Of a stretch of DNA of 64,000 nucleotides, positions 38,537 to 38,607 are shown one piece after another. Source of the DNA: a virus (Duplodnaviria > Caudoviricetes); the IMG/VR virus record IMGVR_UViG_3300037067_018912, positions 293,276 through 357,275 of that record, one strand, 5' to 3'. Positions within the stretch are counted from its first letter, which is position 1. Each line of letters begins with the position of its first letter. The position numbers and the translations under genes are program-made. The notes beneath the pieces were generated by a model. That model was not told the origin of the DNA. It ran no database searches and saw nothing but the letters and a program-made list of their open reading frames with translations.

Positions 38537-38607
38537 TGTTAAACATTTAGTCAGTATTATTATACTGTGCACCAATCACCACGTGCAGGTAGTTTAACAT
38601 GATTGGC
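38537..38607 (-). ncRNA. HDV-like (theta) self-cleaving ribozyme
   Basis: P1 GCCAATC/GATTGGT (G1-U), P2 TGTTAAAC/GTTTAACA, P3 ACC/GGT, L3 TGCACGT, P1.1 GC/GC, P4 CAGTAT/ATACTG, J4/2 with CTAA; G1 directly follows the tRNA discriminator. Confidence 0.85.

Follow-up and report, generated by a model that had tools for sequence, protein, structure and literature searches.

Theta ribozymes are tRNA-associated minimal HDV-like ribozymes of gut Caudoviricetes, described as processors of tRNA 3' ends that are tied to code switching (Kienbeck et al. 2024, PMC10879173). The RNArobo descriptor used for them was tuned by a shorter L4 and J1/2, and a tRNA 3' end was required within +/-5 nt; among the unique sequences that the paper lists, L4 has 5–8 nt, and P1 begins with GG or GA in the entries seen (PMC10879173). 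Four of the ribozymes were tested for cleavage, all of them minimal forms, and the RNA ligase PF09414 is enriched in the phages that carry theta ribozymes; introns, HNH and homing endonucleases are not mentioned in the text of that paper (PMC10879173). Left open for the theta ribozymes are the route by which they spread and why a phage should use a ribozyme rather than the RNases of its host.

R2 and other non-LTR retrotransposons have a 5' HDV-like ribozyme that frees the element RNA from the rRNA co-transcript and forms the 5' end of the mRNA. The R2 context of HDV-like ribozymes is mentioned in PMC11331408. Phage tRNA clusters may also hold free-standing homing endonucleases, like SegB in T4 (PMC2330249; PMC13096335), and the tRNA genes of the Lak megaphages contain "enigmatic introns" (Devoto et al. 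2019, PMC6784885). In the literature no paper was found that links HDV-like ribozymes with homing endonucleases in phages.

The DNA analysed here, called the window, is a stretch of 64,000 nt (G000:C1:293276-357275) from a virus record of 357,275 bp that has direct terminal repeats and is rated complete. G000 is the window's genome, that of a 357-kb jumbo phage, and G001 and the labels beginning with L denote related phage records and contigs. By ARAGORN, G000 contains about 60–65 tRNAs, with tca and cta among the anticodons, and one tmRNA. The nearest relative reached is the 327-kb record G001, where the neighbouring genes are 73–76% identical, and a BLAST search of the 2.1-kb region described below against a phage collection gave no match.

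A predicted HDV-like self-cleaving ribozyme is located at 38537..38607 on the minus strand, as indicated by its helices, a motif scan and a covariance model. P1 (GCCAATC/GATTGGT, 38607-38601 with 38577-38571) has 7 bp and starts with a G1-U wobble between G38607 and U38571, J1/2 is a single A, and P2 (TGTTAAAC/GTTTAACA, 38599-38592 with 38544-38537) has 8 bp and is followed by an unpaired T ahead of the 3-bp P3 (ACC/GGT, 38590-38588 with 38580-38578). L3 reads UGCACGU (38587-38581) and contributes to P1.1, GC/GC, formed by 38586-38585 with 38570-38569. P4 (CAGTAT/ATACTG, 38567-38562 with 38557-38552) is a 6-bp hairpin with the loop AATA and an A on each flank, and J4/2 is CTAAA(T), where the presumptive catalytic C, at 38550, is the first nucleotide. 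Both the reading of the sequence and the motif parse give a complete nested double pseudoknot with P1, P1.1, P2, P3 and P4 in canonical order, and the covariance-model alignment of the window ribozyme has zero non-canonical pairs. The helices, L3, P1.1 and the J4/2 C of the original prediction were thus all recovered on the minus strand. Scission should occur 5' of G38607, which is immediately preceded by A38608, the discriminator of a tRNA-shaped gene, and the distance from the predicted cut to the tRNA 3' end is 0 nt when the tRNA is called, which it is only after removal of its insert. A cut exactly after the discriminator had been predicted, and in position this agrees with the two features, as does a start of the HNH gene 12 nt beyond the ribozyme, with the ATG at 38524 and the ribozyme end at 38537.

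At the gathering threshold of Rfam the ribozyme site is unmatched. With a relaxed threshold (701 nt searched) the family RF02682 (HDV-F-prausnitzii) aligns over its full length from G1 with 25.4 bits, compared to a gathering score of 44, and an E-value of 0.017, and none of the other HDV families in Rfam gave a match at the ribozyme. When both strands of the 357-kb genome are scanned with a generalised theta-style motif, in which L4 may have up to 40 nt, 38607-38537 is the sole match, and no other site is matched by control versions that have A, G or U in place of the catalytic C. The covariance model R1 is based on nine ribozymes of equal J1/2 length that come from other contigs, and the window sequence was left out of it; it scores the window ribozyme at 85.7 bits (E 1.2e-12), the single match in the window and in G000, and has three matches in G001. 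IMG/VR was scanned for the L3/P3 core together with the GC of P1.1, a pattern that did not demand a P4 hairpin, and this gave 114 stretches, about 20 of them with a whole ribozyme. Relatives have compensatory changes in P1, P2 and P1.1, those in P1 and P2 being found among 13 parsed P4-bearing ribozymes, i.e. 12 relatives and the one in the window, and all 13 have a P4 hairpin of differing sequence that is flanked by A and has 4–12 bp. A 13-nt core, ACCTGCACGTGGT, containing the palindrome CACGTG, does not vary among subfamily members from many unrelated contigs. ARAGORN calls a tRNA end at most 1 nt from G1 at 13 of the 21 subfamily loci, and several of the remaining loci have a tRNA-like 3' half, uncalled by the program, that is flush with G1. 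Minimum free energy folds of the ribozyme and the split tRNAs gave z-scores from -1.3 to +1.3, with a method that is blind to pseudoknots. The covariation across the subfamily indicates selection on the full fold, and together with the uniqueness of the motif and the R1 score it indicates that the ribozyme is real as a family member and presumably active; judged by its sequence, the window element truly belongs to the HDV-like ribozymes that adjoin tRNAs in phages.

The first pair of P1 varies among the relatives, with A1-U in L134:1924, L138:1920, L142:1919, L126 and L069:7214 and G1-C in L137, and the orthologous ribozymes with these pairs may be slower or have a shifted site. In two contigs, L054:3363-3609 and L115:1079-1325, about 130 nt separate a theta ribozyme of the minimal type (CC/GG) from a GC/GC ribozyme with P4, and the two bracket a non-tRNA RNA segment. 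In L030:5780-5870, and also in L038 and L047, a ribozyme of the same subfamily directly abuts the 3' half of a tRNA, perfect in T arm and acceptor; no tRNA is called upstream of the L030 ribozyme even with introns of 300 nt allowed, and this type of 3' half may be another split or tRNA-like gene.

The gene upstream of the ribozyme, at 38608..38811 on the minus strand, is tRNA-Val(AAC)-like and has no encoded CCA. ARAGORN in default mode calls no tRNA at 38811-38608, and the tRNA shape was found by hand, with the acceptor stem CAAGGAG/CTCCTTG, a normal D arm, the anticodon stem TCTGT/GCAGG and the T arm GGCTG-TTCGAAT-CGGTC; in place of the 7-nt anticodon loop there are 137 nt, and a folded insert of 130 nt (38779-38650, minus strand) lies between nt 31 and 32. 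Compensatory changes among eight aligned homologues keep the acceptor, D, anticodon and T stems, and RNAalifold on the eight homologues supports the acceptor, D and anticodon stems plus two insert helices with double compensatory changes; one covarying helix of the insert uses the 4–5 nt that immediately follow nt 31. In G001 the syntenic gene is similar, its acceptor and T stems being kept by compensatory changes, and its insert cannot be aligned with that of the window. The family comprises nine phage contigs, where the insert has 130–154 nt and always lies between nt 31 and 32; six of the members were recruited by look-up of HNH homologues and the ninth, L257, by a fixed-spacing pattern. 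With the insert removed in silico from the nine, ARAGORN calls tRNA-Val(AAC) for seven of the products, among them the one from the window, and tRNA-Val(GAC) for one, and in the G001 product a GAC loop can be seen by eye. Position 33 is A rather than U in three members. The covariation of the stems and the insert helices across the homologues indicates a conserved split tRNA-Val-like RNA and not debris. An interruption of the tRNA had been noted in the original prediction as unusual; the insert is indeed present, but as the property of a conserved family and not as an accident in one genome.

Some readings of the insert were rejected. A group I intron is contradicted by the lack of an Rfam match at E<=10 (701 nt), by the lack of a conserved 3'-terminal G in the nine homologues and by the short length; 130 nt is below the size of known self-splicing group I introns. 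A bulge-helix-bulge structure, looked for by eye, is not supported since the pairing between the anticodon loop and the 3' end of the insert is not kept between G000 and G001. Three of the inserts were compared by BLAST to the genome and to all loci and each was unique and unrepeated, indicating that they are not multicopy mobile elements. Among the viral contigs searched no exact copy of the tRNA 3' half was found, and the pattern GAAAGTA-N40-70-GAAATCGGAA was too loose, with 111 matching stretches and no real family member among them.

A second interrupted tRNA is found in the window at 873-1078 on the plus strand, which ARAGORN calls as tRNA-Leu(TAA) once introns are allowed and which has A at position 33. 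Its insert of 123 nt is unrelated in sequence to the insert at 38650-38779 and is bounded by a 10-nt direct repeat, TAAAGAGTGC, which makes the excision point ambiguous. Two more tRNA matches of Rfam, at 565-632 and 1081-1161 (plus strand), are missed by ARAGORN, and have in one case a shortened and in the other a lengthened anticodon region.

Downstream of the ribozyme, 38018..38524 on the minus strand encodes an HNH_3 homing-type endonuclease of 168 aa with a helix-turn-helix-like region at the C-terminus. The assignment comes from Pfam PF13392 (26.0 bits, cut-off 24.8) and from PHROG 59 (5.5e-18) and PHROG 959 (8e-16), both annotated as HNH endonuclease. There are about 45 homologues with 50–72% identity, a comparison of the sequence to solved structures gave nothing significant, and the resolution of the maximum-likelihood tree does not suffice to put the events in order. 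In an ATGA the stop codon of HNH and the start codon of the following gene overlap; that following gene is located at 37455..38021 on the minus strand and encodes a PHROG 'cysteine dioxygenase'-like protein of 188 aa (phrog_4786, 2e-22). This gene is the syntenic anchor of the locus, it is common to the relatives without ribozyme and HNH, and it is 76% identical to the copy in G001 and 70% to that in L257.

The transcription unit is headed by a promoter-type motif, GTAAC-N16-CGTA, at 38860..38884 on the minus strand, which has 33 matches in the window compared to 0.26 expected from shuffles, and which likewise precedes the tRNA-like orthologues in G001, L134, L136, L137, L138 and L142. Between the tRNA-like gene and the co-oriented HNH gene no promoter and no terminator-like site was found, and a single transcript through the tRNA-like RNA, the ribozyme and HNH is the simplest reading. 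This arrangement is in line with the original prediction that the 3' product of the cleavage, itself predicted, should be the mRNA of the endonuclease. Another motif, GTTCTTTGA(C/A)AT, is found in related contigs (L069:7285-7300, L145:1960-1975, L128, L117, L113, L126, L065 and L130) shortly after ribozymes and, at a distance of a few nt, ahead of tRNAs or ribozymes, and probably represents a second class of promoter in these phages; the tRNA-like gene in the window is directly preceded by a degenerate copy, GTTCTTTTTC (38820-38811). In L069 and L145 there is a promoter-like motif between the ribozyme and HNH, and the endonuclease gene need therefore not depend on the ribozyme in these contigs.

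Fourteen distinct loci of this HNH family, found through the HNH gene, were examined, and the presence of the ribozyme was scored with R1. Nine of them have the ribozyme just upstream of HNH, behind two kinds of tRNA, namely the tRNA-Val-like gene in G000, L134, L137, L138/139, L141 and L142, and a tRNA-Pro at the head of a tRNA array in L101, L069/102 and L145. The ribozyme is absent from L136, where the tRNA-Val-like gene is followed by HNH, and from L130, L140, L143 and L144, where HNH is found beside ordinary tRNAs or an ORF. A ribozyme is thus present on 9 of the 13 tRNAs located directly upstream of this HNH, a strong enrichment over the 2–5% of all tRNAs in G000 (1 of about 65) and G001 (3 of about 60), but since loci are orthologous the nine with a ribozyme count as roughly two independent contexts. 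What follows a subfamily ribozyme is in most cases a tRNA or a promoter-like motif and not a nuclease, and in the arrays the constant neighbour of HNH is a tRNA-Pro or tRNA-His just downstream.

At the locus syntenic to that in the window, HNH is polymorphic, being present in G000, L134, L136, L137, L138, L141 and L142 and missing in G001 and L257; these two have the tRNA-like gene and lack both the ribozyme and HNH. A tRNA-like gene with a ribozyme and without HNH does not occur at this locus among those examined. The resulting 2x2 table (6/1/0/2) gives a Fisher p of about 0.08 and is biased by the route through which the loci were discovered. Between L141 and L257 the identity is 81% as far as the final nucleotide of the tRNA-like gene, and the indel begins with nt 1 of the ribozyme; L141 has 879 nt extra, containing the ribozyme, HNH and a further tRNA-like piece, and the homology returns at the next ORF. 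The tRNA-shaped piece within this indel follows right after the HNH stop codon (L141:2510-2632) and has the acceptor GGTGTTG/CAACACC, the T arm GGGTTCGAATCC and an odd interior, and it is not called by ARAGORN. Ribozyme and HNH are accordingly frequently, but not obligatorily, linked. A mobile unit of the two had been proposed in the original prediction, and in favour of it the order recurs in five other contigs behind the tRNA-Val-like gene and in three behind tRNA-Pro, the indel begins with the first ribozyme nucleotide, and both parts are missing together in G001 and L257. The parts are, on the other hand, separable, with HNH lacking the ribozyme in 5 of the 14 loci, L136 being the case at the syntenic position, and with most subfamily ribozymes lacking HNH. 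A cassette of ribozyme and HNH that can come apart is therefore plausible from these comparisons.

The locus as a whole is probably best explained by a co-transcript, self-scission, healing of the tRNA end, and a ribozyme and HNH gained and lost as a cassette at the tRNA 3' end. The transcript would start at the GTAAC-N16-CGTA motif and continue through the tRNA-Val-like RNA with its folded insert, the ribozyme and HNH into the following genes. The ribozyme would fold as the nested double pseudoknot of HDV and cut 5' of G38607, leaving a CCA-less tRNA-like RNA whose last nucleotide, the discriminator A, carries a 2',3'-cyclic phosphate, and an HNH mRNA with a 5'-OH, in which the compactly folded ribozyme comes first and the AUG follows 12 nt after it. 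Healing of the tRNA end and addition of CCA could then fall to enzymes of the phage, the candidates being RtcB, encoded in the window at 55596-56780, and a polyvalent protein of 1507 aa encoded on the minus strand at G000:C1:101962-106485 (L258:1963-6486). The latter contains ADP-ribosyltransferase, GNAT and CCA-adding nucleotidyltransferase domains and has a weak match to the 'Swiss Army Knife RNA repair' HAD domain (HAD_SAK_1), with 22.2 bits and a cut-off of 25.6. No RNA ligase of the PF09414 type was found in G000. Such a ligase is encoded 1–1.5 kb upstream of the tRNA-Val-like gene in L137:280-900 and L142:1-512, in one of them with an intein-like match. The ribozyme and HNH would constitute a gain/loss cassette sited exactly at the tRNA 3' end and moving, presumably through homing by the endonuclease, as one unit, and the ribozyme would let the homing-endonuclease gene ride on the transcript and promoter of the tRNA with the tRNA 3' end unspoiled, in analogy with R2.

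Free-standing homing endonucleases populate the tRNA regions of phages, as SegB in T4 and HNH genes in T5, and the ribozyme might instead be a resident theta-like processor of the tRNA 3' end, with HNH as an unrelated free-standing homing endonuclease that favours the ends of tRNA genes. Such independence would fit with the three subfamily ribozymes behind tRNAs without a nuclease in G001 and with most loci selected through the ribozyme, as well as with the five ribozyme-less HNH loci at tRNAs and the constant downstream tRNA-Pro or tRNA-His in the arrays. It does not account for the frequency of the ribozyme on tRNAs directly upstream of HNH, many times that in G000 and G001, for the missing combination of tRNA-like gene and ribozyme without HNH at the syntenic locus, or for an indel between L141 and L257 that spans both parts and has its edge at ribozyme nt 1, and we therefore regard two unrelated residents as a doubtful explanation, though one to be taken seriously. 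The adjacency might also reflect a choice of target rather than carriage, if HNH recognizes the DNA encoding the ribozyme, with its ACCTGCACGTGGT core, and homes beside ribozymes that were there before. A 13-nt core invariant in so many unrelated contigs is the kind of site that homing endonucleases exploit, and HNH is located 12–100 nt from it in two contexts, but the three such ribozymes in G001 have no HNH beside them and the HNH-less relatives at the syntenic locus have no ribozyme to be targeted, which makes this improbable.

Even less credible, and very improbable indeed, is that the element is an inactive relic or a mere structured 5' leader or stabiliser that does not cleave itself. 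The replacement of the G1-U wobble by A-U or G-C in L134, L138, L142 and L137 would fit with a relic, and a P1 mismatch in L145 hints at a locally relaxed constraint, but the copy in the window retains G1-U, the J4/2 C, the U...G of L3, P1.1 and all helices, and the covariation in the subfamily implies that the full fold is under selection. An active ribozyme that moves together with HNH is accordingly the reading that we prefer.

What appears to be new is the recurrent coupling of ribozyme and HNH as an indel cassette flush with a tRNA end, and the conserved split tRNA-Val-like gene that hosts it. Tentatively, theta-type ribozymes might form the leading part of homing-endonuclease cassettes that have no integrase and insert exactly at tRNA 3' ends, where loss of the nuclease leaves dispersed ribozymes, and the insert in the split tRNA-Val-like gene is perhaps an undescribed type of intron handled by RtcB. 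If true, the ribozyme would rebuild the tRNA 3' end and in the same step release and cap off the nuclease mRNA, and the ribozymes left after nuclease loss would explain their spread among phage tRNA genes; an indel-polymorphic pair at the last base of a tRNA suggests such a selfish-element route of dispersal. It also suggests a second job for the ribozyme, forming the 5' terminus of the nuclease mRNA in the manner of R2 elements in animals. The class of tRNA-adjacent ribozymes is widened to P4-bearing forms of jumbo phages beyond the reach of the published descriptor, and the ribozyme is linked to split tRNA-Val-like RNAs that form a conserved family.

Compared to the theta ribozymes, the window element has the same nested double pseudoknot, L3 pattern (T-NC-NCGY), 3-bp P3 and J4/2 (C-N-N-A(-N)), and its reading T-GC-ACGT ... 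GC ... CTAAA contains all the conserved theta nucleotides in L3, P1.1 and J4/2. P2 and J4/2 are identical to those of the theta entry ribo_nr 1761 (TTAAACT...CTAAA TGTTTAA), and in both systems the cleavage site, which is a predicted one in the window, is flush with the 3' end of a CCA-less phage tRNA and the phage encodes a CCA-adding enzyme. The GC/GC version of P1.1, regarded as unusual in the original prediction, is not so, since it occurs in the published ribo_nr 1783, 1794 and 1831 and throughout the subfamily of the window ribozyme; relative to the CC/GG of most published theta ribozymes it is a double compensatory change. The differences are an L4 segment of 18 nt with a 6-bp P4 instead of 5–8 nt, a P1 that begins with GC instead of GG or GA, and the context of a 357-kb jumbo phage with a split tRNA-like RNA as the upstream gene. 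With the 18-nt P4 hairpin and the GC start, the published descriptor would miss the ribozyme in the window. The original designation as a theta (HDV-like) ribozyme was thus right in that the element is HDV-like, tRNA-adjacent and related to theta, and has to be modified in that the P4 hairpin and the C at position 2 fail the theta descriptor; by its sequence it belongs to a P4-bearing subclass outside that descriptor. The HDV-like ribozyme of Faecalibacterium prausnitzii (RF02682) is similarly of full size with a P4, and its model aligns over 1-74 from G1, but with a score below the gathering score and with a different P1.1 and P2.

The split tRNA-Val-like gene resembles the interrupted tRNA genes of Lak phages (PMC6784885) in that tRNA genes of huge phages are broken by unclassed inserts matching no Rfam family, and differs by the position of the insert between nt 31 and 32, its 130–154 nt, its covarying helices and the ribozyme that follows the gene; the two are likened by description only. 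As with SegB in T4, the endonuclease gene stands alone among tRNA genes and is present or absent in related phages, but SegB is a GIY-YIG enzyme without a ribozyme, whereas the gene in the window encodes an HNH_3 protein and has a ribozyme between it and the tRNA. R2 differs in being eukaryotic, with an rRNA host gene and a retrotransposon as cargo instead of a phage tRNA-like RNA and a DNA homing endonuclease, and would share with the locus described here, as we propose, an HDV-like ribozyme placed between a structural RNA gene of the host and the mRNA of a mobile element.
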